A stretch of DNA of 64,000 nucleotides, from the NCBI GenBank assembly GCA_030390025.1, contig JASTWF010000324.1:1-64000 (forward strand). The letters are read 5' to 3'. The DNA comes from Squalus acanthias (Eukaryota). The position numbers and the translations under genes were made by a program. This document shows, one piece after another, positions 1 to 53,406 of the stretch; the stretch's first letter is position 1; each line of letters starts with the position of its first letter. Below the pieces are notes generated by a model. The model was given only the letters and a program-made list of their open reading frames with translations, was not told the origin of the DNA and did not search any database.

Positions 1-177
1 ACCACTTTTCAGCTTCCTGTATGACATCACTTCCTGTAATCAGTCCAGGATAAATACTGGACTGATCAGTTAGCTCTGGAAGAGGCATAGGGTAAGACCT
101 CTTTTGTATGCAGCACCGTTTTAAGTTGATTAAAGCTTACATTAAGTTTACCACGCGTAAGGCTCATTCTTACGACA
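1..177 (+). repeat. 5' LTR of copy 1 (partial)
   Basis: Matches 4238-4414 except at position 2 (C vs A); ends ...TTACGACA. Confidence 0.95.
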
Positions 178-256
178 ATTTAATCAACTTTGAAAAAACT
201 TCGCACTCAAACTTTTTGGACGAACTCGGAGCTAAGGATCCAGGGAATCACCCATC

Positions 257-3200
257 ATGGAAAACATCCTTAAACCATCGCGTCTTGACTTGGACCCAAA
301 CACCCCAGCAGCCGGTAAGGTGTGGAAACACTGGTATCGCACGTTTGAGAATTTTCTTGAGTATTGCAAAGCTGATGATAACTCAAAGTTGCGGATACTC
401 ATCAACTGTGTCACCCCGAATGTATTTCAGTATGTGGAAGACTGGGACAGTTATGAGGAGGCAATTCAGACGCTTAAGAGACTATATACTAAGACACCGA
501 ATGAGGTCTATGCTAGACATCTACTAGCTACAGCCCAACAAGGGCCGGAGGAATCCATTGATAAATTCCTCCAAGAGCTTCGCAGACTTAGTATGGACTG
601 TAACTTTCGGGCAGCCTCAGCTGAGCTATACCGCGAAGAAATGATCCGTGATGCGTTCATCTGCGGGCTTGCCTCCCCATTTATACGCCAGCGTCTACTG
701 GAAAGTAAGACACTTGAGCTGCAGAGAGCTTATGACCTGGCTTGCTCTCTAGATCTGGCAAAAAGAAATGCAGACCTTTTTACAGTGCCCAGACCTCGGT
801 CTGCTGCCTTAACTACAGTCAGGCAATTTAAGAGGCCACAGGTGAACTCTATTAGGGAGGACTTTATCCCTGACGATCGATCTGATGACTTCACTGATGA
901 AGAGGATGATGACCCCACTGTGGCAGCCTCTTGGCAATCTAAGAAATGCTTTTTTTGTGGTGATGAGTTTCACCCTCGGAGATTCTGCCCTGCTCGCAAT
1001 GCGTTTTGCAGTCATTGCAACAAAAAGGGTCATTTTGTAAAGGTTTGCCTATCAAGAGCCTCTACGAGGGCTTATCAAGCTAAGTCCTACCGAACTGCCC
1101 CAGTAAGGGCCTATCAGGATGTTCCAACTAAAAACTATCGTGCTTCCTCTCGGGTTTTTTCTCGAAGAAACACACCTAGAATTTCAGCCACTCTTTGTGC
1201 AACGACACCAATTACAGCTGCTTGTCCTCAGAATCTATTCCATGCAGCTACAAAAGCATCAATTAATGGACATACTTTAGATGCCTTAATTGACTCAGGT
1301 AGCACTGATAGTTTCATTAGGGAACAGACTGTTGCACAGTTAAAGCTACATGTTTTTCCATCGGACCAGGCAGTTGCGATGGCTCAGTCATCACTTAATA
1401 CCAGAATTTCTGGCTTCTGTGTAGTTGAAATAATGCTTAAAGGTCACAGGTATCCCTCCACCCGGCTTTCGGTGCTCAAGGACTTATGTAGTGATCTTAT
1501 CTTAGGGCTGGATTTTCAAAAGCAGCATAAGAAGCTTACCATTGAGTTCGGCGGATCCAAACCTGAACTCACTATTTCTAATATACGACCTCGATTACCG
1601 TTCTGTGCCTTGTCAGCAGCTTCACTGGATGAACCCTCACTGTTTGCCAGTATCCCTCCTCGATGCAAACCGATTATAACAAAGTCACGCCGTTTCAGTC
1701 AGGAAGACCAGTCTTTTATTGCGGCTGAGATTTCTCGGCTTTTAGCAGAGGATATCATCGAGCCTTGTTCGTCGCCATGGCGCGCCCAGGTCGTTATTGT
1801 TAAGAACCCTCTACAACCTCACAAGAAACGGCTGTGCATTGACTATTCACAGACCATCAATCAGTATACGGACTTGGACGCATACCCATTGCCGCGCATC
1901 GATGATATGGTTAATAAATTGGCTGAGTACACGGTGTTCTCGACTTATGATCTGAAAAGCGCCTATCATCAGGTACCCTTGAAGGTCTCAGACAAGCAGT
2001 ATACAGCCTTTGAAGCCAATGGGCGGCTGTATCAATTTCGTCGCCTCCCCTTTGGGGTCACTAATGGAGTGGCTGTCTTCCAGCGAGCAATGGATGACCT
2101 GGTCAAACAGGAAGACTTGAAGGATACGTTTCCTTATCTGGACAATATTACTGTCGCAGGTCGCAATCAGCAGGAACATGACGCCAATCTCCAACGATTT
2201 TGGGATGCACTCCAGCACCGTAATTTGACATTGAATGCGGCTAAATCCATTGAGTCACAACCAACTATCAACATCCTTGGCTATTGTGTGGGCAATGGCA
2301 TCATTAAACCTGACCCTGAAAGGCTTCGCCCACTCCAAGAACTCCCGCCACCTAAGAATCCGGCCTCCTTGCGCCGGGCCCTCGGCCTGTTTGCATACTA
2401 TGCGAAATGGATTCCTAACTTCTCGGACCGAATCCAACCTCTACTGAAGGCCAGCATATTCCCACTAGACACAACGGCTGTTGCAGCCTTTAACCTCCTG
2501 AAAAAGCAGTTGGAGAAAGCGGCTCTTCACTCCATCGATGAGAGTCTTCCTTTCGTGGTTGAGTGTGATGCCTCGGAGGTGGCAATCTCAGCCACTCTGA
2601 ATCAGGAAGGTCGTCCGGTGGCATTTTTGTCCAGGACTTTTCAAGGGGCTGAGCTACATTATCCTCCAGTCGAGAAAGAAGCTACAGCCATCATAGAGGC
2701 AGTACGGAAGTGGAGTCATCTCCTGGCTCGCCAGCACTTTACCTTAATCACGGACCAGCGATCGGTCGCCTTCATGCTCGATAATCGAAAACGGACCAAA
2801 ATTAAAAATAATAAAATCCAGCTTTGGCGGCTGGAATTGGCCTCTTTTGGTTACACCATCCACTATCGACCTGGCAAGGAGAATGTGGCTCCGGATACCC
2901 TCACACGAGCATTCTGCTCCGCCATGGCACCCTCTACGCTCGTAGACATCCATGATGGGTTGTGTCATCCAGGCGTTACTCGCATGCTGCACTTCGTGCG
3001 GTCCCGAAATCTCCCATTCTCTACCGGGGATGTAAAGAAGATGTGCTCGGACTGCAGAGTCTGTGCGGAATTGAAACCTCGGTTTTTCCGCCCCTCGGGT
3101 GGTATACTCATACATGCGACCCAGCCAATGCAAAGGCTTAGCATCGATTTTAAGGGGCCGTTGCCCTCTTCGACTCGCAACACTTATCTATTAACAATGG

Positions 3201-4213
3201 TTGATGAGTATTCTCGTTTTCCGTTTGCCTTTCCCTGCCCCAATATGCTGACAACCACGGTTATCAGCTGCCTTGAACAGGTATTTGCTTTCTGTGGCAT
3301 GGCATCCTATGTTCATTCAGATCGGGGCCCTTCTTTTATGTCGGGAGAACTCAAGGCCTATCTCTCGGAACGGGGTATTGCTGCCAGCAAAACGACGCCT
3401 TATCATCCGGTTGGGAATGGGCAAGTCGAGCGTTTTAACGCTATCATCTGGAATGCGGTACGTCTGGCTTTGAGATCTCGGGGCCTACCCAACCAGCATT
3501 GGGAAGCAGTACTTCCAGACGCATTACACTCCACACGGTCCCTCCTTTCGACCGCCACAAATACGACGCCTCATGAACGGTTCTTCCGATTTCAGCGTCG
3601 CTCATCCTATGGGACATCTCTCCCGTCGTGGCTGACTGCACCGGGACCAGTGCTACTCCGAAGATATGTCCGGGCGTCTAAGAATGACCCCCTGGTAGAT
3701 GAGGTTGAGCTCACTGACGTCAACCCTACCTACGCCTATATTCGGTATCCTGACGGTCGGGAATCTACCGTGTCATTGCGGGATCTGGCTCCCTGCCCGC
3801 CGAAACATAGAGGGACACCAGGGGATGATATTGTACCAAGCACATCTCTGGGCTTGCCAGGTGCCTCTCATCATGATCGGGATCTGACGCCGGCTGGTAC
3901 CTCACTCCAGCGTGCCGACCTGGGGCAGACTGACTATGAGCCCGTTGGGGCTCGCACGCGCAGCCACGATCAACCCTGTACCGTACGCTCAGAAACGGAT
4001 CTGCCACAGCCCTGCCTGACACCCATTCGGGTACCAGTACACAGTCAGGATCGTTCTGACCCCTCACAGAGCGGGCTGGAGCACTCGGACTCTGGTCCAT
4101 GGCCCGCAGCGGGTAAACGGGCTAGGGGCCCTCTACCGCTACGAGAACCCAAACGGGTGCGGCTCTCCCTCATCCAACGGCTACGAAATGGAGGGAGCAT
4201 CCCGGCCTCCTAA
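257..4213 (+). CDS. Gag-Pol polyprotein, 1318 aa (gag with two Zn knuckles, aspartic protease, RT, RNase H, integrase)
   Basis: CFFCGDEFHPRRFC and CSHCNKKGHFVKVC knuckles; protease LIDSGS; RT motifs LCIDY, YDLKSAYHQ, LPFGV, YLDN; RNase H ECDAS, EKEA, TDQ; integrase H-H-C-C (IHDGLCH...CSDCRVC) and D,D35E (SIDF, HSDRG, GQVER). No stop or frameshift. Confidence 0.96.
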   Translation: MENILKPSRLDLDPNTPAAGKVWKHWYRTFENFLEYCKADDNSKLRILINCVTPNVFQYVEDWDSYEEAIQTLKRLYTKTPNEVYARHLLATAQQGPEESIDKFLQELRRLSMDCNFRAASAELYREEMIRDAFICGLASPFIRQRLLESKTLELQRAYDLACSLDLAKRNADLFTVPRPRSAALTTVRQFKRPQVNSIREDFIPDDRSDDFTDEEDDDPTVAASWQSKKCFFCGDEFHPRRFCPARNAFCSHCNKKGHFVKVCLSRASTRAYQAKSYRTAPVRAYQDVPTKNYRASSRVFSRRNTPRISATLCATTPITAACPQNLFHAATKASINGHTLDALIDSGSTDSFIREQTVAQLKLHVFPSDQAVAMAQSSLNTRISGFCVVEIMLKGHRYPSTRLSVLKDLCSDLILGLDFQKQHKKLTIEFGGSKPELTISNIRPRLPFCALSAASLDEPSLFASIPPRCKPIITKSRRFSQEDQSFIAAEISRLLAEDIIEPCSSPWRAQVVIVKNPLQPHKKRLCIDYSQTINQYTDLDAYPLPRIDDMVNKLAEYTVFSTYDLKSAYHQVPLKVSDKQYTAFEANGRLYQFRRLPFGVTNGVAVFQRAMDDLVKQEDLKDTFPYLDNITVAGRNQQEHDANLQRFWDALQHRNLTLNAAKSIESQPTINILGYCVGNGIIKPDPERLRPLQELPPPKNPASLRRALGLFAYYAKWIPNFSDRIQPLLKASIFPLDTTAVAAFNLLKKQLEKAALHSIDESLPFVVECDASEVAISATLNQEGRPVAFLSRTFQGAELHYPPVEKEATAIIEAVRKWSHLLARQHFTLITDQRSVAFMLDNRKRTKIKNNKIQLWRLELASFGYTIHYRPGKENVAPDTLTRAFCSAMAPSTLVDIHDGLCHPGVTRMLHFVRSRNLPFSTGDVKKMCSDCRVCAELKPRFFRPSGGILIHATQPMQRLSIDFKGPLPSSTRNTYLLTMVDEYSRFPFAFPCPNMLTTTVISCLEQVFAFCGMASYVHSDRGPSFMSGELKAYLSERGIAASKTTPYHPVGNGQVERFNAIIWNAVRLALRSRGLPNQHWEAVLPDALHSTRSLLSTATNTTPHERFFRFQRRSSYGTSLPSWLTAPGPVLLRRYVRASKNDPLVDEVELTDVNPTYAYIRYPDGRESTVSLRDLAPCPPKHRGTPGDDIVPSTSLGLPGASHHDRDLTPAGTSLQRADLGQTDYEPVGARTRSHDQPCTVRSETDLPQPCLTPIRVPVHSQDRSDPSQSGLEHSDSGPWPAAGKRARGPLPLREPKRVRLSLIQRLRNGGSIPAS

Positions 4214-4219
4214 TCTTTT

Positions 4220-4231
4220 GGGGGGGGAGAA
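4220..4231 (+). other. Polypurine tract of copy 1
   Basis: GGGGGGGGAGAA immediately upstream of the 3' LTR TG. Confidence 0.9.
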
Positions 4232-4414
4232 TGTGGTAACACTTTTCAGCTTCCTGTATGACATCACTTCCTGTAATCAGTCCAGGATAAATACTGGACT
4301 GATCAGTTAGCTCTGGAAGAGGCATAGGGTAAGACCTCTTTTGTATGCAGCACCGTTTTAAGTTGATTAAAGCTTACATTAAGTTTACCACGCGTAAGGC
4401 TCATTCTTACGACA
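4232..4414 (+). repeat. 3' LTR of copy 1 (183 bp)
   Basis: TGTGGTAA...TTACGACA, with TG..CA termini and an imperfect 8-bp terminal inverted repeat. Confidence 0.96.
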
Positions 4415-7400: not shown

Positions 7401-10303
7401 TCAGTCCTGTTACATACACACAGTCAGTGCTGGGACACTCAGTCCTGTTACACACACAGTCAGTGCTGGGACACTCAGTCCTGTTACACACACAGTCAGT
7501 GCTGGGACACTCAGTCCTGTTACACACACACAGTCAGTGCTGGGACACTCAATCCTGTTACACACACAGTCAGTGCTGGGACACTCAGTCCTGTTACACA
7601 CACACAGTCAGTGCTGGGACACTCAGTCCTGTTACACATACAGTCAGTGCTGGGACACTCAGTCCTGTTATACACACACAGTCAGTGCTTGGACACTCAG
7701 TGCTGCAATACACACACAGTCAGTGCTGGGACACTCAGTCCTGTTACACACACAGTCAGTGCTGGGACTCTCAGTCCTGTTACACACACAGTCAGTGCTG
7801 AGACACTCAGTCCTGTTACACACACAGTCAGTGCTGGGACACTCAGTCCTGTTATACACACAGTCAGTGCTGGGACACTCAGTCCTGTTACACATACAGT
7901 CAGTGCTGGGACACTCAGTCCTGTTGCACTCACACAGTCAGTGCTGGGACACTCAGTCCTGTTACACACACACAGTCAGTGCTGGGACACTCAGTCCTGT
8001 TACACACACAGTCAGTGCTGGGACACTCAGTCCTGTTATACACACACAGTCAGTGCTGGGACACTCAGTCCTGTTACGCTCACACAGTCAGTGCTGGGAC
8101 ACTCAGTCCTGTTACACACACAGTCATGCTGGGACTCTCAGTCCTGTTACACACACAGTCAGTGCTGAGACACTCAGTCCTGTTACACACACAGTCAGTG
8201 CTGGGACACTCAGTCCTGTTATACACACAGTCAGTGCTGGGACACTCAGTCCTGTTACACACACAGTCAGTGCTGGGACTCTCAGTCCTGTTACAGACAC
8301 AGTCAGTGCTGGGACACTCAGTCCTGTTACACACACAGTCAGTGCTGGGACACTCAGTCCTGTTACACACACACAGTCAGTGCTGGGACACTCAGTCCTG
8401 TTACACATACAGTCAGTGCTGGGACACACTGTCCTGTTATACACACAGTCAGTGCTGGGACACTCAGTCCTGTTATACACACACAGTCAGTGCTTGGACA
8501 CTCAGTGCTGTTATACACACACAGTCAGTGCTGGGACACTCAGTCCTGTTACACACACAGTCGGTGCTGGGACTCTCAGTCCTGTTACACACACAGTCAG
8601 TGCTGAGACACTCAGTCCTGTTACACACACAGTCAGTGCTGGGACACTCAGTCCTGTTATACACACAGTCAGTGCTGGGACACTCAGTCCTGTTACACAC
8701 ACAGTCAGTGCTGGGACTCTCAGTCCTGTTACACACACAGTCAGTGCTGGGACACTCAGTCCTGTTACACACACAGTCAGTGCTGGGACACTCAGTCCTG
8801 TTGCACACACACAGTCAGTGCTGGGACACTCAGTCCTGTTATACACACAGTCAGTGCTGGGACACTCAGTCCTGTTATACACACAGTCAGTGCTGGGACA
8901 CTCAGTCCTGTTACACACACAGTCAGTGCTGGGACACTCAGTCCTGTTACACTCACACAGTCAGTGCTGGGACACTCAGTCCTGTTACACATGCAGTCAG
9001 TGCTGGGACACACTGTCCTGTTATACACACAGTCAGTGCTGGGACACTCAGTCCTGTTATACACACAGTCAGTGCTGGGACACTCAGTCCTGTTACACAC
9101 ACAGTCAGTGCTGGGACTCTCAGTCCTGTTACACAAACAGTCAGTGCTGGGACACACTGTCCTGTTATACACACAGTGAGTGCTGGGACACTCAGTCCTG
9201 TTACACACAGTCAGTGCTGGGACACTCAGTCCTGTTACACACACAGTCAGTGCTGGGACTCTCAGTCCTGTTACACACACAGTCAGTGCTGGGACACTCA
9301 GTCCTGTTACACACAGTCAGTGCTGGGACACTCAGTCCTGTTACACACACAGTCAGTGCTGGGACTCTCAGTCCTGTTACACACACAGTCAGTGCTGGGA
9401 CACTCAGTCCTGTTATACACACAGTCAGTGCTGGGACACTCAGTCCTGTTACACACAGAGTCATTGCTGGGACACTCAGTCCTGTTATACACACAGTCAG
9501 TGCTGGGACACTCAGTCCTGTTACACACAAAGTCAGTGCTGGGACTCTCAGTCCTGTTACACACACAGTCAGTGCTGGGACACTCAGTCCTGTTACACAC
9601 AGAGTCATTGCTGGGACACTCAGTCCTGTTACACACACAGTCAGTGCTGGGACACTCAGTCCTGTTACACACAGTCAGTGCTGGGACACTCAGTCCTGTT
9701 ACACACACAGTCAGTGCTGGGACACTCAGTCCTGTTACACACAGTCAGTGCTGGGACACTCAGTCCTGTTACACACACAGTCAGTGCTGGGACACTCAGT
9801 CCTGTTACACACAGTCAGTGCTGGGACACTCAGTCCTGTTACACACACAGTCAGTGCTGGGACACTCAGTCCTGTTACACACACAGTCAGTGCTGGGACA
9901 CTCAGTCCTGTTACACACACATTTAGTGCTGGGACACTCAGTCCTGTTACACACAGTCAGTGCTGGGACACTCAGTCCTGTTACACACACACAGTCAGTG
10001 CTGGGACACTCAGTCCTGTTACACACACAGTCAGTGCTGGGACACTCAGTCCTGTTACACACACAGTCAGTGCTGGGACACTCAGTCCTGTTACACACAC
10101 ATTTAGTGCTGGGACACTCAGTCCTGTTACACACAGTCAGTGCTGGGACACTCAGTCCTGTTACACACACACAGTCAGTGCTGGGACGCTCAGTCTTGTT
10201 ACGCTCACACAGTCAGTGCTGGGACACTCAGTCCTGTTACATATACAGTCAGTGCTGGGACACACAGTCCTGTTATACACACAGTCAGTGCTGGGACACT
10301 CAG
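4415..10303. repeat. ~36-bp (34-38) minisatellite GTCAGTGCTGGGACACTCAGTCCTGTT(AC)nA, segment between the two LTR elements
   Basis: Directly visible tandem repeat; length varies in the CA tract. Confidence 0.98.
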
Positions 10304-13300
10304 TGTGGTAACACTTTTCAGCTTCCTGTATGACATCACTTCCTGTAATCAGTCCAGGATAAATACTGGACTGATCAGTTAGCTCTGGAAGAGGCATAGG
10401 GTAAGACCTCTTTTGTATGCAGCACCGTTTTAAGTTGATTAAAGCTTACATTAAGTTTACCACGCGTAAGGCTCATTCTTACGACAATTTAATCAACTTT
10501 GAAAAAACTTCGCACTCAAACTTTTTGGACGAACTCGGAGCTAAGGATCCAGGGAATCACCCATCATGGAAAACATCCTTAAACCATCGCGTCTTGACTT
10601 GGACCCAAACACCCCAGCAGCCGGTAAGGTGTGGAAACACTGGTATCGCACGTTTGAGAATTTTCTTGAGTATTGCAAAGCTGATGATAACTCAAAGTTG
10701 CGGATACTCATCAACTGTGTCACCCCGAATGTATTTCAGTATGTGGAAGACTGGGACAGTTATGAGGAGGCAATTCAGACGCTTAAGAGACTATATACTA
10801 AGACACCGAATGAGGTCTATGCTAGACATCTACTAGCTACAGCCCAACAAGGGCCGGAGGAATCCATTGATAAATTCCTCCAAGAGCTTCGCAGACTTAG
10901 TATGGACTGTAACTTTCGGGCAGCCTCAGCTGAGCTATACCGCGAAGAAATGATCCGTGATGCGTTCATCTGCGGGCTTGCCTCCCCATTTATACGCCAG
11001 CGTCTACTGGAAAGTAAGACACTTGAGCTGCAGAGAGCTTATGACCTGGCTTGCTCTCTAGATCTGGCAAAAAGAAATGCAGACCTTTTTACAGTGCCCA
11101 GACCTCGGTCTGCTGCCTTAACTACAGTCAGGCAATTTAAGAGGCCACAGGTGAACTCTATTAGGGAGGACTTTATCCCTGACGATCGATCTGATGACTT
11201 CACTGATGAAGAGGATGATGACCCCACTGTGGCAGCCTCTTGGCAATCTAAGAAATGCTTTTTTTGTGGTGATGAGTTTCACCCTCGGAGATTCTGCCCT
11301 GCTCGCAATGCGTTTTGCAGTCATTGCAACAAAAAGGGTCATTTTGTAAAGGTTTGCCTATCAAGAGCCTCTACGAGGGCTTATCAAGCTAAGTCCTACC
11401 GAACTGCCCCAGTAAGGGCCTATCAGGATGTTCCAACTAAAAACTATCGTGCTTCCTCTCGGGTTTTTTCTCGAAGAAACACACCTAGAATTTCAGCCAC
11501 TCTTTGTGCAACGACACCAATTACAGCTGCTTGTCCTCAGAATCTATTCCATGCAGCTACAAAAGCATCAATTAATGGACATACTTTAGATGCCTTAATT
11601 GACTCAGGTAGCACTGATAGTTTCATTAGGGAACAGACTGTTGCACAGTTAAAGCTACATGTTTTTCCATCGGACCAGGCAGTTGCGATGGCTCAGTCAT
11701 CACTTAATACCAGAATTTCTGGCTTCTGTGTAGTTGAAATAATGCTTAAAGGTCACAGGTATCCCTCCACCCGGCTTTCGGTGCTCAAGGACTTATGTAG
11801 TGATCTTATCTTAGGGCTGGATTTTCAAAAGCAGCATAAGAAGCTTACCATTGAGTTCGGCGGATCCAAACCTGAACTCACTATTTCTAATATACGACCT
11901 CGATTACCGTTCTGTGCCTTGTCAGCAGCTTCACTGGATGAACCCTCACTGTTTGCCAGTATCCCTCCTCGATGCAAACCGATTATAACAAAGTCACGCC
12001 GTTTCAGTCAGGAAGACCAGTCTTTTATTGCGGCTGAGATTTCTCGGCTTTTAGCAGAGGATATCATCGAGCCTTGTTCGTCGCCATGGCGCGCCCAGGT
12101 CGTTATTGTTAAGAACCCTCTACAACCTCACAAGAAACGGCTGTGCATTGACTATTCACAGACCATCAATCAGTATACGGACTTGGACGCATACCCATTG
12201 CCGCGCATCGATGATATGGTTAATAAATTGGCTGAGTACACGGTGTTCTCGACTTATGATCTGAAAAGCGCCTATCATCAGGTACCCTTGAAGGTCTCAG
12301 ACAAGCAGTATACAGCCTTTGAAGCCAATGGGCGGCTGTATCAATTTCGTCGCCTCCCCTTTGGGGTCACTAATGGAGTGGCTGTCTTCCAGCGAGCAAT
12401 GGATGACCTGGTCAAACAGGAAGACTTGAAGGATACGTTTCCTTATCTGGACAATATTACTGTCGCAGGTCGCAATCAGCAGGAACATGACGCCAATCTC
12501 CAACGATTTTGGGATGCACTCCAGCACCGTAATTTGACATTGAATGCGGCTAAATCCATTGAGTCACAACCAACTATCAACATCCTTGGCTATTGTGTGG
12601 GCAATGGCATCATTAAACCTGACCCTGAAAGGCTTCGCCCACTCCAAGAACTCCCGCCACCTAAGAATCCGGCCTCCTTGCGCCGGGCCCTCGGCCTGTT
12701 TGCATACTATGCGAAATGGATTCCTAACTTCTCGGACCGAATCCAACCTCTACTGAAGGCCAGCATATTCCCACTAGACACAACGGCTGTTGCAGCCTTT
12801 AACCTCCTGAAAAAGCAGTTGGAGAAAGCGGCTCTTCACTCCATCGATGAGAGTCTTCCTTTCGTGGTTGAGTGTGATGCCTCGGAGGTGGCAATCTCAG
12901 CCACTCTGAATCAGGAAGGTCGTCCGGTGGCATTTTTGTCCAGGACTTTTCAAGGGGCTGAGCTACATTATCCTCCAGTCGAGAAAGAAGCTACAGCCAT
13001 CATAGAGGCAGTACGGAAGTGGAGTCATCTCCTGGCTCGCCAGCACTTTACCTTAATCACGGACCAGCGATCGGTCGCCTTCATGCTCGATAATCGAAAA
13101 CGGACCAAAATTAAAAATAATAAAATCCAGCTTTGGCGGCTGGAATTGGCCTCTTTTGGTTACACCATCCACTATCGACCTGGCAAGGAGAATGTGGCTC
13201 CGGATACCCTCACACGAGCATTCTGCTCCGCCATGGCACCCTCTACGCTCGTAGACATCCATGATGGGTTGTGTCATCCAGGCGTTACTCGCATGCTGCA

Positions 13301-14723
13301 CTTCGTGCGGTCCCGAAATCTCCCATTCTCTACCGGGGATGTAAAGAAGATGTGCTCGGACTGCAGAGTCTGTGCGGAATTGAAACCTCGGTTTTTCCGC
13401 CCCTCGGGTGGTATACTCATACATGCGACCCAGCCAATGCAAAGGCTTAGCATCGATTTTAAGGGGCCGTTGCCCTCTTCGACTCGCAACACTTATCTAT
13501 TAACAATGGTTGATGAGTATTCTCGTTTTCCGTTTGCCTTTCCCTGCCCCAATATGCTGACAACCACGGTTATCAGCTGCCTTGAACAGGTATTTGCTTT
13601 CTGTGGCATGGCATCCTATGTTCATTCAGATCGGGGCCCTTCTTTTATGTCGGGAGAACTCAAGGCCTATCTCTCGGAACGGGGTATTGCTGCCAGCAAA
13701 ACGACGCCTTATCATCCGGTTGGGAATGGGCAAGTCGAGCGTTTTAACGCTATCATCTGGAATGCGGTACGTCTGGCTTTGAGATCTCGGGGCCTACCCA
13801 ACCAGCATTGGGAAGCAGTACTTCCAGACGCATTACACTCCACACGGTCCCTCCTTTCGACCGCCACAAATACGACGCCTCATGAACGGTTCTTCCGATT
13901 TCAGCGTCGCTCATCCTATGGGACATCTCTCCCGTCGTGGCTGACTGCACCGGGACCAGTGCTACTCCGAAGATATGTCCGGGCGTCTAAGAATGACCCC
14001 CTGGTAGATGAGGTTGAGCTCACTGACGTCAACCCTACCTACGCCTATATTCGGTATCCTGACGGTCGGGAATCTACCGTGTCATTGCGGGATCTGGCTC
14101 CCTGCCCGCCGAAACATAGAGGGACACCAGGGGATGATATTGTACCAAGCACATCTCTGGGCTTGCCAGGTGCCTCTCATCATGATCGGGATCTGACGCC
14201 GGCTGGTACCTCACTCCAGCGTGCCGACCTGGGGCAGACTGACTATGAGCCCGTCGGGGCTCGCACGCGCAGCCACGATCAACCCTGTACCGTACGCTCA
14301 GAAACGGATCTGCCACAGCCCTGCCTGACACCCATTCGGGTACCAGTACACAGTCAGGATCGTTCTGACCCCTCACAGAGCGGGCTGGAGCACTCGGACT
14401 CTGGTCCATGGCCCGCAGCGGGTAAACGGGCTAGGGGCCCTCTACCGCTACGAGAACCCAAACGGGTGCGGCTCTCCCTCATCCAACGGCTACGAAATGG
14501 AGGGAGCATCCCGGCCTCCTAATCTTTTGGGGGGGGAGAATGTGGTAACACTTTTCAGCTTCCTGTATGACATCACTTCCTGTAATCAGTCCAGGATAAA
14601 TACTGGACTGATCAGTTAGCTCTGGAAGAGGCATAGGGTAAGACCTCTTTTGTATGCAGCACCGTTTTAAGTTGATTAAAGCTTACATTAAGTTTACCAC
14701 GCGTAAGGCTCATTCTTACGACA
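10304..14723 (+). mobile_element. Ty3/Gypsy LTR retrotransposon, copy 2, full length 4420 bp, 5-bp TSD CTCAG
   Basis: LTRs 10304-10486 and 14541-14723 look identical; CTCAG at 10299-10303 and 14724-14728; PPT at 14529-14540. Confidence 0.98.
10566..14522 (+). CDS. Gag-Pol polyprotein, 1318 aa, same protein as copy 1
   Basis: Same translation in the ORF track; one synonymous difference seen (T3946 vs C14255). Confidence 0.96.
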   Translation: MENILKPSRLDLDPNTPAAGKVWKHWYRTFENFLEYCKADDNSKLRILINCVTPNVFQYVEDWDSYEEAIQTLKRLYTKTPNEVYARHLLATAQQGPEESIDKFLQELRRLSMDCNFRAASAELYREEMIRDAFICGLASPFIRQRLLESKTLELQRAYDLACSLDLAKRNADLFTVPRPRSAALTTVRQFKRPQVNSIREDFIPDDRSDDFTDEEDDDPTVAASWQSKKCFFCGDEFHPRRFCPARNAFCSHCNKKGHFVKVCLSRASTRAYQAKSYRTAPVRAYQDVPTKNYRASSRVFSRRNTPRISATLCATTPITAACPQNLFHAATKASINGHTLDALIDSGSTDSFIREQTVAQLKLHVFPSDQAVAMAQSSLNTRISGFCVVEIMLKGHRYPSTRLSVLKDLCSDLILGLDFQKQHKKLTIEFGGSKPELTISNIRPRLPFCALSAASLDEPSLFASIPPRCKPIITKSRRFSQEDQSFIAAEISRLLAEDIIEPCSSPWRAQVVIVKNPLQPHKKRLCIDYSQTINQYTDLDAYPLPRIDDMVNKLAEYTVFSTYDLKSAYHQVPLKVSDKQYTAFEANGRLYQFRRLPFGVTNGVAVFQRAMDDLVKQEDLKDTFPYLDNITVAGRNQQEHDANLQRFWDALQHRNLTLNAAKSIESQPTINILGYCVGNGIIKPDPERLRPLQELPPPKNPASLRRALGLFAYYAKWIPNFSDRIQPLLKASIFPLDTTAVAAFNLLKKQLEKAALHSIDESLPFVVECDASEVAISATLNQEGRPVAFLSRTFQGAELHYPPVEKEATAIIEAVRKWSHLLARQHFTLITDQRSVAFMLDNRKRTKIKNNKIQLWRLELASFGYTIHYRPGKENVAPDTLTRAFCSAMAPSTLVDIHDGLCHPGVTRMLHFVRSRNLPFSTGDVKKMCSDCRVCAELKPRFFRPSGGILIHATQPMQRLSIDFKGPLPSSTRNTYLLTMVDEYSRFPFAFPCPNMLTTTVISCLEQVFAFCGMASYVHSDRGPSFMSGELKAYLSERGIAASKTTPYHPVGNGQVERFNAIIWNAVRLALRSRGLPNQHWEAVLPDALHSTRSLLSTATNTTPHERFFRFQRRSSYGTSLPSWLTAPGPVLLRRYVRASKNDPLVDEVELTDVNPTYAYIRYPDGRESTVSLRDLAPCPPKHRGTPGDDIVPSTSLGLPGASHHDRDLTPAGTSLQRADLGQTDYEPVGARTRSHDQPCTVRSETDLPQPCLTPIRVPVHSQDRSDPSQSGLEHSDSGPWPAAGKRARGPLPLREPKRVRLSLIQRLRNGGSIPAS

Positions 14724-17700
14724 CTCAGTACTGTTATACACACACAGTCAGTGCTTGGACACTCAGTCCTGTTATACACACACAGTCAGTGCTGGGACAC
14801 TCAGTCCTGTTACACACACAGTCAGTGCTGGGACTCTCAGTCCTGTTACACACACAGTCAGTGCTGAGACACTCAGTCCTGTTACACACACAGTCAATGC
14901 TGGGACACTCAGTCCTGTTACACACACAGTCAGTGCTGGGACACTCAGTCCTGTTATACACACAGTCAGTGCTGGGACACTCAGTCCTGTTACACACACA
15001 GTCAGTGCTGGGACTCTCAGTCCTGTTACACACACAGTCAGTGCTGAGACACTCAGTCCTGTTACACACACAGTCAGTGCTGGGACACTCAGTCCTGTTA
15101 TACACACAGTCAGTGCTGGGACACTCAGTCCTGTTACACACACAGTCAGTGCTGGGACACTCAGTCCTGTTACACACACACAGTCAGTGCTGGGACACTC
15201 AGTCCTGTTACACATACAGTCAGTGCTGGGACACTCAGTCCTGTTATACACACAGTCAGTGCTGGGACACTCAGTCCTGTTATACACACAGTCAGTGCTG
15301 GGACACTCAGTCCTGTTACACACACAGTCAGTGCTGGGACACTCAGTCCTGATACGCTCACACAGTCAGTGCTGGGACACTCAGTCCTGTTACACATACA
15401 GTCAGTGCTGGGACACACAGTCCGGTTATACACACAGTCAGTGCTGGGACACTCAGTCCTGTTATACACACACAGTCAGTGCTTGGACACTCATTCCTGT
15501 TATACACACACAGTCAGTGCTGGGACACTCAGTCCTGTTACACACACAGTCAGTGCTGGGACTCTCAGTCCTGTTACACACACAGTCAGTGCTGAGACAC
15601 TCAGTCCTGTTACACACACAGTCAGTGCTGGGATACTCAGTCCTGTTATACACACAGTCAGTGCTGGGACACTCAGTCCTGTTACACAAACAGTCAGTGC
15701 TGGGACACTCAGTCCTGTTACACACACAGTCAGTGCTGGGACACTCAGTCCTGTTATACACACATGTCAGTGCTGGGACACTCAGTCCTGTTGCACACAC
15801 AGTGAGTGCTGGGACACTCAGTCCTGTTACACACACAGTCAGTGCTGGGACTCTCAGTCCTGTTATACACACACAGTCAGTGCTGGGACACTCAGTCCTG
15901 TTACACACAGAGTCATTGCTGGGACACTCAGTCCTGTTACACACACAGTCAGTGCTGGGACTCTCAGTCCTGTTACACACACAGTCAGTGCTGGGACACT
16001 CAGTCCTGTTACACACAGTCAGTGCTGGGACACTCAGTCCTGTTGCACACAGTCAGTGCTGGGACACTCAGTCCTGTTGCACACACAGGCAGTGCTGGGA
16101 CACTCAGTCCTGTTACACACAGTCAGTGCTGGCACAATTAGTCCTTTTACACACACAGTCAGTGCCTGGACACTCAGTCTTGTTACACACACAGTCAGTG
16201 CTGGGACACTCAGTCCTGTTGCACACACAGGCAGTGCCTGGACACTCAGTCCTGTTACACACACAGTCAGTGCCTGGACACTCAGTCCTGTTACACACAC
16301 ACAGTCAGTGCTGGGACACGCAGTCCTGATACACACAGTCAGTGCTGGGACACTCAGTCCTGTTATACACACAGTCAGTGCTGGGACACTCAGTCCTGTT
16401 ACACACACAGTCAGTGCTGGGACACTCAGTCCTGTTACACTCACACAGTCAGTGCTGGGACACTCAGTCCTGTTACACACACACAGTCAGTGCTGAGACA
16501 CTCAGTCCTGTTACGCTCACACAGTCAGTGCTGGGACACTCAGTCCTGTTACACATACAGTCAGTGCTGGGACACACAGTCCTGTTATACACACAGTCAG
16601 TGCTGGGACACTCAGTACTGTTATACACACACAGTCAGTGCTTGGACACTCAGTGCTGTTATACACACAGTCAGTGCTGGGACTCTCAGTCCTGTTACAC
16701 ACACAGTCAGTGCTGAGACACTCAGTCCTGTTACACACACAGTCAGTGCTGGGACACTCAGTCCTGTTATACACACAGTCAGTGCTGGGACACTCAGTAC
16801 TGTTATACACACACAGTCAGTGCTGGGACACTCAGTCCTGTTACACACACAGTCAGTGCTGGGACTCTCAGTCCTGTTACACACACAGTCAGTGCTGAGA
16901 CACTCAGTCCTGTTACACACACAGTCAGTGCTGGGACACTCAGTCCTGTTATACACACAGTCAGTGCTGGGACACTCAGTCCTGTTACACACACAGTCAG
17001 TGCTGGGACTCTCAGTCCTGTTACACACACAGTCAGTGCTGGGACACTCAGTCCTGTTACACACACAGTCAGTGCTGGGACACTCAGTCCTGTTACACAC
17101 ACACAGTCAGTGCTGGGACACTCAGTCCTGTTACACATACAGTCAGTGCTGGGACACACTGTCCTGTTATACACACAGTCAGTGCTGGGACACTCAGTCC
17201 TGTTATACACACACAGTCAGTGCTTGGACACTCAGTGCTGCAATACACACACAGTCAGTGCTGGGACACTCAGTCCTGTTACACACACAGTCAGTGCTGG
17301 GACTCTCAGTCCTGTTACACACACAGTCAGTGCTGAGACACTCAGTCCTGTTACACACACAGTCAGTGCTGGGACACTCAGTCCTGTTATACACACAGTC
17401 AGTGCTGGGACACTCAGTCCTGTTACACATACAGTCAGTGCTGGGACACTCAGTCCTGTTGCACTCACACAGTCAGTGCTGGGACACTCAGTCCTGTTAC
17501 ACACACACAGTCAGTGCTGGGACACTCAGTCCTGTTGCACACACAGTCAGTGCTGGGACACTCAGTCCTGTTATACACACACAGTCAGTGCTGGGACACT
17601 CAGTCCTGTTACGCTCACACAGTCAGTGCTGGGACACTCAGTCCTGTTACACACACAGTCAGTGCTGGGACTCTCAGTCCTGTTACACACACAGTCAGTG

Positions 17701-31360: not shown

Positions 31361-31984
31361 TTATATCTCCCTCAGTCGTGATAAGGTGCTGACTGTCCAA
31401 GGACAAGTCTTTCATTCATAGTTGGGTAACTGATCGATAATTACATGAGAAATATTCTGATAATAATCCGAGTCTGCTCGTCAAGCCCAGCGTGCTGGAA
31501 CCCGAGTGAGCTTCCCCGCCCACACCTGTCACTCCGCACTCTCTGCATCACTCCTGCTCTCCCACATCCTCCTCCTCACTGCCGGACACCGAGCTGTTTT
31601 TGTGCCCTTTCTTGCGGAAATATCTCCCACAATCACCTTGCCTGTTAACCCACCTGCTTCTGAAAACCCTCCTTTGACCAAGCCTTTGGTCGCCCTTCTC
31701 CAATTTACTGATAACACCAATCTTTCTCCTGTTTGGGACATGCCCTTCACACAAGGAGTGCGAAACAATACAAGGCTCGTCGGTACACAGAGGCTGCAGA
31801 GTAATGAGTGCCAAACCACAGTGAGAACCTTATCAACACTGCGGTTACAGCAGCACTGTTACAGTATCAGTGTATGCCCAGAGTGGGTTCTGGTATGGCC
31901 CTACCATGCCAGTGAAGTGCAATTGTGAATCTGTAAAAGCCTTGTGCACATGCTCTGTGAGAAACTCCAAGCTGCATAGCCAGG

Positions 31985-32778
31985 ACAGTGCAGAGGGAGC
32001 TTTACTCTGTATCTAACCCGTGCTGTACCTGCCCTGGGAGTGTTTGATGGGACAGTGTAGAGGGAGCTTTACTCTGTATCTAACCCGTGCTATACCTGCC
32101 CTGGGAGTGTTTGATGGGACAGTGTAGAGGGAGCTTTACACTGTATCTAACCCGTGCTGTACCTGCCCTGGGAGAGTTTGATGGGACAGTGTAGAGGGAG
32201 CTTTACTCTGTATCTAAATCGTGCTGTACCTGCCCTGGGAGTGTTTGATGGGACAGTGTAGAGGGAGCTTCACTCTGTATCTAACCCGTGCTGTACCTGT
32301 CCTGGGGGTGTTTGATGGGACAGTGTAGAGGGAGTTTTACTCTGTATCTAACCCGTGCTGTACCTGTCCTGGGGGTGTTTGATCGGACAGTGTAGAGGGA
32401 GCTTTACTCTGTATCTAACCCGTGCTGTACCTGCCCTGGGAGTGTTTGATGGGGCAGTGTAGAGGGAGCTTTACTCTGTATCTACCCGTGCTGTACCTGT
32501 CCTGGGGGTGTTTGATGGGACAGTGTTGAGGGAGCTTTACTCTGTATCTACCCGTGCTGTACCTGTCCTGGGGGTGTTTGATGGGACAGTGTAGAGGGAG
32601 CTTTACTCTGTATCTAACCCGTGCTGTACCTGCCCTGGGGGTGTTTGATGGGACAGTGTAGAGGGAGCTTTACTCTGTATCTAACCCGTGCTGTACCTGT
32701 CCTGGGGGTATTTGATGTGACAGTGTAGAGGGAGCTTTACTCTGTATCTAACCCGTGCTGTACCTGTCCTGGGAGTGT
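31985..32778 (+). repeat. 67-bp satellite AGAGGGAGCTTTACTCTGTATCTAACCCGTGCTGTACCTGCCCTGGGAGTGTTTGATGGGACAGTGT (~12 copies)
   Basis: Visible tandem units with period 67. Confidence 0.97.
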
Positions 32779-43136: not shown

Positions 43137-46100
43137 AGTGTAGAGGGAGCTTTACCCTGTATCTAACCCGTGCTGTACCTGCCCTGGGAGTGTTTGATGG
43201 GACAGTGTAGAGGGAGCTTCACTCTGTATCTAACCCGTGCTGTACCTGCCCTGGGAGTGTTTGAAGGGACAGTGTAGAGGGAGCTTTACTCTGTATCTAA
43301 CCCGTGCTGTACCTGCCCTGGGAGTGTTTGATGCGACAGTGTAGAGGGAGCTTTACTCTGTATCTAACCCGTGCTGTACCTGCCCCGGGAGTGTTTGATG
43401 GGGCAGTGTAGAGGGAGCTTTACCCTGTATCTAACCCGTGCTGAACCTGCCCTGGGAGTGTTTGATGGGACAGTGTAGAGGGAGCTTTACTCTGTATCTA
43501 ACCCGTGCTGTACCTGCCCTGGGAGTGTTTGATGGGACAGTGTAGAGGGTGCTTTACTCTGTATCTAACCCGTGCTGTACCTGCCCTGGGAGTGTTTGAT
43601 GGGAGAGTGTAGAGGGAGCTTTACTCTGTATCTACCCCGTGCTGTACCTGCCCTGGGAGTGTTTGATGGGACAGTGTAGAGGGAGCTTTACTCTGTATCT
43701 AACCCGTGCTGTACCTGCCCTGGGAGTGTTTGATGGGTCAGTGTAGAGGGAGCTTTACTCTGTATCTAATCCGTGCTGTACCTGCCCTGGGAGTGTTTGA
43801 TGGGACAGTGTAGAGGGAGCTTTACTGTGTATCTAACCCGTGCTGTACCTGCCCTGGGAGTGTTTGATGGGACAGTGTAGAGGGAGCTTTACTCTGTATC
43901 TAATCCGTGCTGAACCTGCCGTGGGAGTGTTTGGTGGGACAATGTCGAGGGAGCTTTACTCTGTATCTAACCCGAACTGTACCTGCCCTGGGAGTGTTTA
44001 ATGGGGTAGTGTAGAGGGAGCTTTACTCTGTATCTAACCCGTGCTGTACCTGCCCTGGGAGTGTTTGATGGGACAGTGTAGAGGGAGCTTTACTCTGTAT
44101 CTATCCCGTGCTGTCCCTGCCCTGGGAGGGTTTGATGGGATAGTGTAGAGGGAGCTTTACTCTGTATCTAACCCGTGCTGTACCTGCCCTGGGAGTGATT
44201 GATGGGGTAGTGTAGAGGGAGCTTTACTCTGTATCTAACCCGTGCTGTACCTGCCCTGGGAGCGTTTGATGGGAGAGTGTAGAGGGATCTTTACTCTGTA
44301 TCTAACCCGTGCTGTACCTGCCCTGGAAGTGTTTGATGGGACAGTGTAGAGGGAGCTTTACTCTGTGCCTAACCCGTGCTGTACCCGCACTGGGAGTGTT
44401 TGATGGGACAGTGTAGAGGGAGCTTTACTCTGTATCTAACCCGTGCTGTACCTGCCCTGGGAGTATTTGATGGGGCAGTGTAGAGGGAGCTTTACACTGT
44501 ATCTAACCTGTGCTGTACCTGCCCTGGGAGTATTTGATGGGACAGTGTAGAGGGAGCTTCACTCTGTATCTAACCCGTGCTGTACCTGCCCTGGGAGTGT
44601 TTGATGGGACAGTTTAGATGGAGCTTCACTCTGTATCTAACCCGTGCTGTACCTGCCCTGGGAGTGTTTGATGGGACAGTTTAGATGGAGCTTTACTCTG
44701 TATCTAATCCGTGCTGTACCTGCCATGGGAGTGTTTGATGGGACAGTGTAGAGGGAGCTTTACTCTGTATCTAATCCGTGCTGTACCTGCCCTGGGAGTG
44801 TTTGATGGGGCAGTGTAGAGGGAGCTTTACCCTGTATCTAACCCGTGCTGAACCTGCCCTGGGAGTGTTTGATGGGACAGTGTAGAGGGAGCTTTACTCT
44901 GTATCTAACCCGTGCTGTACCTGCCCTGGGAGTGTTTGATGGGACAGTTTAGATGGAGCTTCACTCTGTATCTAACCCGTGCTGTACCTGCCCTGGGAGT
45001 GTTTGATGGGACAGTTTAGATGGAGCTTTACTCTGTATCTAATCCGTGCTGTACCTGCCATGGGAGTGTTTGATGGGACAGTGTAGAGGGAGCTTTACTC
45101 TGTATCTAATCCGTGCTGTACCTGCCCTGGGAGTGTTTGATGGGGCAGTGTAGAGGGAGCTTTACCCTGTATCTAACCCGTGCTGAACCTGCCCTGGGAG
45201 TGTTTGATGGGACAGTGTAGAGGGAGCTTTACTCTGTATCTAACCCGTGCTGTACCTGCCCTGGGAGTGTTTGATGGGACAGTGTAGAGGGTGCTTTACT
45301 CTGTATCTAACCCGTGCTGTACCTGCCCTGGGAGCGTTTGATGGGAGAGTGTAGAGGGATCTTTACTCTGTATCTAACCCGTGCTGTACCTGCCCTGGGA
45401 GTGTTTGATGGGACAGTGTAGAGGGAGCTTTACTCTGTATCTAACCCGTGCTGTACCTGCCCTGGGAGTGTTTGATGGGTCATTGTAGAGGGAGCTTTAC
45501 TCTGTATCTAATCCGTGCTGTACCTGCCCTGGGAGTGTTTGATGGGACAGTGTAGAGGGAGCTTTACTGTGTATCTAACCCGTGCTGTACCTGCCCTGGG
45601 AGTGTTTGATGGGACAGTGTAGAGGGAGCTTTACTCTGTATCTAATCCGTGCTGAACCTGCCGTGGGAGTGTTTGGTGGGACAATGTCAAGGGAGCTTTA
45701 CTCTGTATCTAACCCGTGCTGTACCTGCCCTGGGAGTGTTTAATGGGGTAGTGTAGAGGGAGCTTTACTCTGTATCTAACCCGTGCTGTACCTGCCCTGG
45801 GAGTGTTTGATGGGACAGTGTAGAGGGAGCTTTACTCTGTATCTATCCCGTGCTGTCCCTGCCCTGGGAGGGTTTGATGGGATAGTGTAGAGGGAGCTTT
45901 ACTCTGTATCTAACCCGTGCTGTACCTGCCCTGGGAGTGATTGATGGGGTAGTGTAGAGGGAGCTTTACTATGTATCTAACCCGTGCTGTACCTGCCCTG
46001 GGAGCGTTTGATGGGAGAGTGTAGAGGGATCTTTACTCTGTATCTAACCCGTGCTGTACCTGCCCTGGAAGTGTTTGATGGGACAGTGTAGAGGGAGCTT

Positions 46101-47040
46101 TACTCTGTGCCTAACCCGTGCTGTACCCGCACTGGGAGTGTTTGATGGGACAGTGTAGAGGGAGCTTTACTCTGTATCTAACCCGTGCTGTACCTGCCCT
46201 GGGAGTATTTGATGGGGCAGTGTAGAGGGAGCTTTACACTGTATCTAACCTGTGCTGTACCTGCCCTGGGAGTATTTGATGGGACAGTGTAGAGGGAGCT
46301 TCACTCTGTATCTAACCCGTGCTGTACCTGCCCTGGGAGTGTTTGATGGGACAGTTTAGATGGAGCTTCACTCTGTATCTAACCCGTGCTGTACCTGCCC
46401 TGGGAGTGTTTGATGGGACAGTTTAGATGGAGCTTTACTCTGTATCTAATCCGTGCTGTACCTGCCATGGGAGTGTTTGATGGGACAGTGTAGAGGGAGC
46501 TTTACTCTGTATCTAATCCGTGCTGTACCTGCCCTGGGAGTGTTTGATGGGAAAGTGTAGAGGGAGCTTTACCCTGTATCTAACCCGTGCTGTACCTGCC
46601 CTGGGAGTGTTTGATGGGACAGTGTAGAGGGAGCTTTACTCTGTGTCTAACCCGTGCTGTACCTGCCCTGGGAGTGTTTGATCTGACAGTGTAGAGGGAG
46701 CTTTACTCTGTATCTAACCCGTGCTGTACCTGCCCTGGGAGTGTTTGATGGGACAGTTTAGAGGGAGCTTTACTCTGTATCTAACCCGTGCTGTACCTGC
46801 CCTGGGAGTGTTTGATGGGACAGTGTAGAGGGAGCTTTACTCTGTATCTAATCCGTGCTGTACCTGCCCTGGGAGTGTTTGATGGGACAGTGTAGAGGGA
46901 GCTTTACTGTGTATCTAACCCATGCTGTACCTGCCCTGGGAGTGTTTGATGGGACAGTGTAGAGGGAGCTTTACTCTGTATCTAATCCGTGCTGTACCTG
47001 CCCTGGGAGTGTTTGATGGGACAGTGTAGAGGGAGCTTTA
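43137..47040 (+). repeat. 67-bp satellite, large array (~58 copies)
   Basis: Same unit as 31985-32778. Confidence 0.98.
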
Positions 47041-47430
47041 TTCTGATATCATGTGGCTGAACATCAAAATTGCATCAACCATTATTGGGTGCTGCATGAA
47101 TGCTGTCAGCTCCTGTGGTCGGAGAAATGGACTGACTAACATCGCATGTGGGTTTGGTGCACTTGATAACCAACGTGCAGCATATATACAGGGCAGGACA
47201 GCTTTCAACATTGCTTGAATGCCACTAGTCAGCTGTAAGAGCAACGGGCGGGGGCGACTGCCAAAGTTCCCAACACAATGTTGTTCTCAGGGACTATATT
47301 GTTTGGTGATTCAGAAGCCGTGCAAGCCTAGTTGTAGCACTGAGATGAAGCTAGCCCGCACTGGTTTTCACCCTGAGCTGTGTTGGGAACCCTTCAAATA
47401 TTGACACACTGTGAGGAGGCCCTGCAATTA

Positions 47431-53134: not shown

Positions 53135-53406
53135 AGAGTAAAGCTCCCTCTACACTGTCCCATCAAACACTCCCAGGGCAGGTACAGCACGGGTTAGATA
53201 CAGAGTAAAGCTCCCTCTACACTGTCCCATCAAACACTCCCAGGGGAGGTACAGCACGGGTTAGATACAGAGTAAAGCTCCCTCTACACTGTCCCATCAA
53301 ACACTCCCAGGGCAGGTACAGCACAGGTTAGATACAGAGTAAAGCTCCCTCTACACTGTCCCATCAAACACTCCCAGGGCAGGTACAGCACGGGTTAGAT
53401 ACAGAG
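53135..53406 (-). repeat. 67-bp satellite, reverse orientation, left of the LTR insertion
   Basis: Reverse complement of the 67-bp unit. Confidence 0.95.

Follow-up and report, generated by a model that had tools for sequence, protein, structure and literature searches.

A chromodomain-less Ty3/Gypsy lineage of animals, represented in Squalus acanthias, with a primer-binding position complementary to its own long terminal repeat: a candidate for self-primed reverse transcription

Results

The DNA analyzed here, a stretch of 64,000 nucleotides from Squalus acanthias (assembly GCA_030390025.1, contig JASTWF010000324.1, positions 1 to 64,000; hereafter the window), carries at 10304-14723 a complete long terminal repeat (LTR) retrotransposon of the Ty3/Gypsy type, whose putative primer-binding site (PBS) pairs with a segment of the element's own LTR. 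Tf1-like self-priming, in which an element starts reverse transcription from a piece of its own RNA and uses no host tRNA, is the best explanation of this arrangement, and one that we consider likely. An earlier inspection of the letters of the window (the sequence-only reading) had proposed a candidate self-priming Gypsy lineage on the basis of this element and its copies; compensatory pairing in relatives from other hosts now supports such a predicted lineage beyond the single element.

Primer-site pairing and RNA fold in the window

The 5' LTR of the element (10304-10486; this feature and all those below are on the forward strand) is followed by a single spacer base, A (10487), which would be the first to be copied, and then by the putative PBS (10488-10499). 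This 12-mer, TTTAATCAACTT, is the exact reverse complement of AAGTTGATTAAA at 10432-10443, within the LTR, a segment that ends in ATTAAA and constitutes the predicted self-primer. In a second copy located at the start of the window (copy 1; the element at 10304-14723 is copy 2), the same two arms are found at 123-134 and 179-190. The pairing could be confirmed letter by letter and coordinate by coordinate, and no TGG, the start of a tRNA-type site, occurs within 20 bases after the 5' LTR, in agreement with what the sequence-only reading had claimed on both points. Searches for other signals in the region were negative: there was no Rfam match at 10250-10700, and no tRNA gene was found in the window.

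Inverted-repeat scans showed that the two arms form the sole perfect inverted repeat of at least 12 bp with a loop of 20-90 nt in the 4420-bp element, while the longest helix was of 8 bp when the 300 nt upstream were subjected to 30 dinucleotide shuffles. The 44 bases between the arms are predicted to fold into two hairpins, P2 (GCTTA-cat-TAAGT, 10444-10456), which begins one base past the predicted cut, and P3 in the U5 part (10465-10483, with a 7-bp stem and a 5-nt loop). Folding of 10432-10499 as RNA resulted in a three-way junction of -16.4 kcal/mol (z -4.4; none of 200 shuffles folded equally well), and the corresponding fold of a diverged copy of the element, located further along the window, reached -15.5 kcal/mol (z -3.8; one of 200 shuffles did), in agreement with the two hairpins and the junction proposed for both copies. 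The long-range helix and both hairpins also survived in a fold of the 191-nt context (10390-10580). At a finer scale, the last two A of the 12-mer join an extended first hairpin in the minimum free energy structure, and the centroid structure holds 11 helix pairs. In the diverged copy the predicted 11-bp version of the helix was found at 53547-53557 with 53602-53612, with T instead of A at helix position 12.

Recurrence of the helix in relatives

Of 8000 candidates scored with a query spanning the reverse transcriptase (RT) to the integrase (IN), 1765 proteins matched at E up to 0.001. Identity was 55-88% for the best 120 of these homologues, and those with a named source came from shrimp, copepod, nematode, tunicate, sea anemone, mussel and ray (RT-to-IN identity 55-77%). 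The DNA of relatives was fetched by means of an alignment of 32 full-length homologues, which yielded 85 loci (80 from metagenomes and 5 from contigs of metagenome-assembled genomes, MAGs) with 37-69% protein identity; no relative was found in viral contigs. The 5' ends were examined in the 32 of these 85 loci that reach the first 25 residues of gag; the other 53 stand outside the helix test, and four of them, with later query starts, were searched and gave no LTR pair. Together with the two window copies the test set comprised 34 elements, 26 with at least 150 nt upstream of gag and 8 on short, circularly permuted contigs.

A perfect helix of 11-19 bp (most often 13), with its 3' arm at most 135 nt from the start of gag and longer than any helix in 30 dinucleotide shuffles, was present in 21 of the 26 elements. 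Two more (L068 and L092) showed a helix of 10 bp; when read by eye across a single non-Watson-Crick position, it has 13 of its 14 positions paired. Six of the eight permuted contigs contained an inverted repeat of at least 12 bp, in each case a single one that corresponds to the pair of LTR site and PBS.

The position of the helix relative to the LTR was also shared. Mapped LTR pairs of relatives measured 127-234 bp and, where the border was exact, the LTR end was followed by one base and then by TTT(A/T), a stretch complementary to a site located 38-56 nt before the LTR end. Among 29 tabulated elements the PBS began with TTT in 28 and with TCT in one, with TGG in none, and the six bases before it ended in CAA in 25 (CAT, CAG or AAA in the rest); the 3' arm always lay 0-2 bases past the LTR end (CA-A-TTT). 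Self-BLAST of fetched loci longer than 4.5 kb that lacked mapped LTRs added no usable LTR pair bearing a site of the tRNA type. Of 22 distinct relatives, 18 have a hairpin of 4 bp or more that starts one base past the predicted cut; the frequency for other anchors, a weak control, was 51%. This hairpin is of the type RCCT...AGGY in relatives and GCTTA...TAAGT in the window.

The distance between the PBS and the gag ATG, which is 66 nt in the window element, was variable. The PBS ends 1-5 nt before the ATG in L035-L042, L052, L067, L072, L096, L105 and L108, and the helix covers the ATG in L096 and L040; in relatives with short leaders such as these, the priming structure and the start of translation may compete. 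Complete or partial copies were also found in contigs filed as bacterial MAGs (L111-L115, assigned to an unclassified bacterium, Bacteroidetes, Ekhidna and Metamycoplasmataceae), most likely reflecting contamination of the bins with host DNA.

Compensatory change in the two arms

In order to compare the arms, the 29 helix-bearing elements, representing 24 distinct arm combinations, were considered, and the five helix-less elements were excluded. Out of 14 pairs, an average of 13.25 were Watson-Crick when the arms came from the same element, 9.18 when they came from different elements, and 2.3-5.2 in slid registers. An alignment of 25 sequences (MAFFT, four exact duplicates dropped) had 95.4% of its 350 cells paired, compared to 21-50% in the slid controls. 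Changes on both sides were detected in 11 of the 14 pairs (70 cells), and the covariation score was 0.588 against 0.161 for shuffles, with none of 500 shuffles reaching the observed value. The pattern differed along the helix: at the priming end, positions 1-3 hardly depart from A-U; at each of positions 4-13, between two and four standard pair types occur and unpaired cells are very rare; position 14 is paired in 17 of 25 sequences. In the sublineage of L096 and L040 the helix reaches 19 bp.

About 17 independent relatives in other hosts thus preserve the duplex through compensatory changes, a positive outcome of the covariation test that the sequence-only reading had suggested. Since the PBS varies between hosts while tracking the LTR, its partner is, as judged from these paired changes, the element itself, through its own LTR, and not a conserved tRNA. 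Moreover, covariation as far as positions 12-13, and 19 bp in one sublineage, suggests that the RNA must begin at or upstream of 10432, and not necessarily at AGTTGATTAAA, at or near which the start had previously been predicted.

Proposed mechanism

Under Tf1-like self-priming, the transcript would start at the helix or a few bases before it, and its 5' segment would fold back onto the PBS. The RNase H of the element would then cut after the last A (10443), that is, at the 3' end of the self-primer and at the junction with hairpin P2, and the new 3' OH would prime minus-strand strong-stop DNA from 10487 to 10444. This product would be transferred to the corresponding segment of the 3' LTR, located before the poly(A) site, and later plus-strand strong-stop synthesis would copy the RNA primer. 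The PBS would in this way be rewritten from the primer in each cycle, which would explain the perfect complementarity in young copies.

In most members the 3' end of the primer falls at an AAUAAA or AUUAAA hexamer, and the priming and polyadenylation signals probably share bases. The overlap of both signals, first suggested for the window element, held for part of the family: AATAAA or ATTAAA ends exactly at the junction in 14 of 25 sequences (scored by eye), the other 11 show one-base variants there, and some relatives with a variant hexamer carry a canonical one further downstream. As read from these sequences, the overlap is frequent, not universal.

Several observations weigh against self-priming. 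We infer both the cleavage by RNase H and the use of the primer purely from the geometry of the structure. No TATA-like motif at a conserved distance was found in 16 relatives; the sole such motif in the window, ATAAATA, lies 73 nt upstream of the helix (10359-10365); transcription directed by this motif would add approximately 40 bases to the 5' end of the RNA, unlike in Tf1. The helix is of variable length (11-19 bp), and the helix anchors of six elements were set by hand on the flanking motifs AAA-GCC and CAA-TTT. Three of the 26 elements with sufficient upstream sequence (L039, L077 and L091) showed nothing above background, and two of the eight permuted contigs (L043 and L055) had no inverted repeat of at least 12 bp; older LTRs or broken contigs are a putative, not proven, cause in these five relatives. 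The public sequencing runs (18 listed, all as contigs, four of which were aligned to the element) look like DNA assemblies, and neither the RNA start nor the poly(A) site was obtained from them. Finally, the best complement to the PBS among host tRNAs was of 6 nt, in a weak test that covered 27 distinct sequences of Lys(UUU) and Cys(GCA) only.

Alternative explanations

The alternative that survives best, although we regard it as unlikely, is that the helix is a structure of the leader RNA involved in packaging, dimerisation or control of gag translation, with priming by something else. The fold is thermodynamically marked, and the PBS ends 1-20 nt before the gag ATG in most relatives, with the ATG inside the helix in two of them, where pairing could gate translation. 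A mere leader structure, however, need not have its 3' arm fixed at the LTR border, the necessary starting point of minus-strand synthesis, as is the case here; in addition, no other candidate primer site is present between the LTR and gag, in leaders that measure only 15-20 nt in many relatives.

Less probable still is the possibility that a host tRNA, a tRNA fragment or another small RNA binds 10488-10499 and that the match to the LTR is secondary. Priming by tRNA is the rule for LTR elements. Among elements of similar build, and according to the available excerpts of the sources, Steamer uses tRNA-Leu (PMC8905726) and MchSLE1 has a putative tRNA-Asn site (PMC11046912); furthermore, the host tRNA set was sampled for two isoacceptors only. 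Nevertheless, TGG is missing from the window site and from all 29 tabulated elements, and neither the tRNA gene search of the window nor the Rfam search of 10250-10700 gave a match. A 12-base tRNA-Leu site that begins with TGG is described in Steamer and in the neighbouring C9 and C10 branches, and in Steamer elements it is reported to be conserved in many bivalves (PMC8905726), which illustrates how a conserved tRNA holds its site constant across hosts. In the lineage studied here the site itself changes at positions 4-13 between hosts and the LTR follows with matched changes, a pattern that a conserved tRNA cannot explain and that disfavours such a partner. Given that the tRNA sample is thin, the case against a tRNA primer rests on this covariation and on the missing TGG.

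A chance inverted repeat or AT-rich artefact, to which the AT-rich arms and the three pairs that hardly vary (AAA/TTT) might point, has a negligible probability and is refuted by the inverted-repeat scans (a sole repeat of at least 12 bp in 4.4 kb), the shuffles (exceeded in 21 of 26 elements) and the double changes at 11 of 14 pairs.

Lineage and comparison with known elements

The self-priming candidate encodes gag-pol in a single, uninterrupted frame of 1318 aa (10566-14522), in which Pfam domains appear in the order aspartic protease, RT, RNase H and integrase. Two CX2CX4HX4C knuckles were read by eye in the translation of gag, and the cluster look-up of gag returned generic Gag and CCHC clusters only. 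No Pfam match to the chromodomain (PF00385) was obtained at E up to 0.01 in the 1318 aa of gag-pol, nor did this domain appear in any of the 120 best homologues, so that the two-knuckle gag and the absence of a chromodomain, both noted from the sequence, were confirmed by translation and Pfam. The further claim of a lineage separate from the Tf1/sushi group stands to the extent that it follows from the missing chromodomain; its placement derives from that trait and not from an RT tree. Based on these sequences, the lineage looks non-chromoviral, similar to Mag and its C-clade, and widespread in animals.

Self-priming has been described in fission yeasts. According to the excerpts of the cited papers, to which the comparisons with published elements in this section refer, Tf1 RNA anneals to the PBS through its first 11 bases and is cleaved by RNase H between bases 11 and 12 (PMC7175516), self-priming is also reported for Tj1 of S. 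japonicus (PMC4600332), and it is predicted for the Tf1/sushi group, for the Tcn1 clade of plants and fungi, and for the TAR lineage of plant Ty1/copia elements (PMC6317226, PMC4600332). Like Tf1 and Tf2 of Schizosaccharomyces pombe and Tj1, the window element has no tRNA site, and its PBS, beside the 5' LTR, pairs with RNA derived from its own LTR (PMC7175516, PMC4600332); in addition, its U5 between the arms is predicted to be structured, as theirs is, its predicted cut lies at the inner end of the duplex, and it has the single gag-pol frame of Tf1. Unlike these experimentally studied elements, it has an animal host and no chromodomain, its helix is most often of 13 bp (11-19) instead of 11, and its priming is a prediction from sequence, in which the helix may or may not begin at the first base of the RNA. 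A further difference lies in the 3' end of the primer, an almost invariant AAA that in most cases belongs to a poly(A)-type hexamer. In vertebrates, the same kind of sequence-based prediction of self-priming exists for members of the Tf1/sushi group (sushi-ichi and relatives). The self-priming Gypsy groups, Tf1/sushi and Tcn1, are nonetheless chromoviruses, whereas the present lineage lacks the chromodomain.

In its general build (4.4 kb, LTRs of 127-234 bp, two knuckles) the lineage matches Mag elements, and the mean LTR length given for Mag C is 174 bp (PMC3601003). It resembles Steamer and the C-clade (SURL-like elements) in its size (4.4-5 kb), LTRs of about 150-220 bp, single gag-pol frame and two zinc knuckles (PMC8905726, PMC3601003, PMC6238403), as well as in a wide spread in aquatic animals with high protein identity across phyla (here 55-77% from RT to IN). 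With respect to the LTR end motifs of Mag C (5' TGTNATRT and 3' AYANAACA, PMC3601003), the 3' ends ...CATAACA and ...CTACAACA fit, and the 5' ends TGTGGTAA, TGATGTGA and TGTTGTGA fit partly. Unlike Steamer, C9 and C10, the lineage has no tRNA-Leu site: when a site of the Steamer type was sought, it was absent from the window and from all 115 loci, and its 70 matches in the genome were at chance level (75 for the control). Identity values of 55-77% across phyla recall the reported horizontal transfer of Steamer-like elements (a title cited in PMC8905726).

Implications

Self-priming has been demonstrated only for Tf1-type elements of fission yeasts, and predicted for their chromoviral relatives and one plant copia lineage. 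If the present reading is true, the occurrence of self-priming in an animal lineage without a chromodomain would imply a wider distribution of the mechanism, or more than one origin. No report of self-priming was found for elements of the Mag lineage or other chromodomain-less Gypsy elements of animals, in a search that left the older literature on SURL, Jule and Steamer uncovered, so that an earlier report is possible. Tentatively, and with somewhat more doubt than confidence, we propose that a pan-metazoan Gypsy lineage of Mag/C-clade build exchanged its tRNA primer for a self-primer independently of Tf1/sushi, and that about 13 nt of its LTR serve as the 5' segment of the RNA, as the primer and, in most members, as the poly(A) signal; freedom from a host RNA primer may partly explain both the 55-77% identity of the polymerase across phyla and the thousands of copies in a vertebrate genome. 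If the lineage sits within the Mag C-clade, the type of primer would have switched among close relatives of Steamer. The approximately 17 relatives would amount to natural compensatory mutants that define the primer helix, and with over 2000 copies whose U5-PBS junction is intact, the mechanism would be testable in a vertebrate. From a practical point of view, LTR-element finders that score a tRNA-type PBS will under-call or mis-rank this lineage.

Element structure, further copies and genomic surroundings

The borders of the element were determined by BLAST of the region against the window. The 5' LTR (183 bp, TG...CA) is 100% identical over its length to the 3' LTR (14541-14723; 183 of 183 positions) and to 4232-4414, the 3' LTR of copy 1. 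The element is flanked by a target-site duplication, CTCAG, at 10299-10303, with the identical five bases at 14724-14728, right behind the 3' LTR. A polypurine tract, GGGGGGGGAGAA, at 14529-14540 adjoins the 3' LTR, and relatives have comparable G-rich purine tracts ahead of their 3' LTR. Two features of U3 are possible factor-binding sites: the motif CTTCCTGT, which occurs twice (10322-10329 and 10339-10346), and an 8-bp palindrome (10350-10357 with 10366-10373) around ATAAATA. At the spacing from the helix that is usual for a TATA box, U3 has no TATA-like motif.

Copy 1 (1-4414), whose 5' LTR is cut by the start of the window and whose frame spans 257-4213, is 99.98% identical to copy 2. Both copies, offset by 10309 bases, are flanked by the same 36-bp satellite, and they derive not from two insertions but from the duplication, within the array, of a block that comprises the element and about 5.9 kb of satellite. 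The diverged copy (53405-55099) is internally deleted, and its LTRs are approximately 85-89% similar to those of the main family.

The family is large, young and recently amplified in the 3.7 Gb host genome. At least 40 places were 100% identical over 257 bases of LTR and leader, with 40 of 930 candidates scored. Exact matches to the 22-mer across the U5-PBS junction numbered 2253 in the genome, and those to the 22-mer around the LTR-internal site 804 (0 for the control in both cases), a difference that apparently reflects older subfamilies, such as that of the diverged copy, which share the PBS but differ at the outer end of the LTR site. Among 100 places listed for the LTR-internal site, most were paired at a distance of about 4237 bases, equivalent to the length of the element minus one LTR. 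In the public runs, contigs branched into many flanks at 10303/10304, 10487-10489 and 14724-14728, which agrees with the LTR borders and with many insertion sites; in run X2 the depth on the LTR unitig was approximately fourfold higher.

The array of the 36-bp satellite that hosts the element extends over 4411-26590 of the window, and the diverged copy lies at the edge of a 67-bp satellite (53135-53407), further arrays of which were found at 31983-32778 and 43137-47050. The contig is rich in satellites, with at least eight others (periods of 20, 24, 26, 31, 33, 37, 69 and 87 bp). Elsewhere in the same genome, an Rfam search for tRNA returned mostly tandem arrays of tRNA-Lys genes; those for tRNA-Lys(UUU) form long arrays that repeat about every 1.78 kb (contigs C29, C2208, C1484 and C1516).

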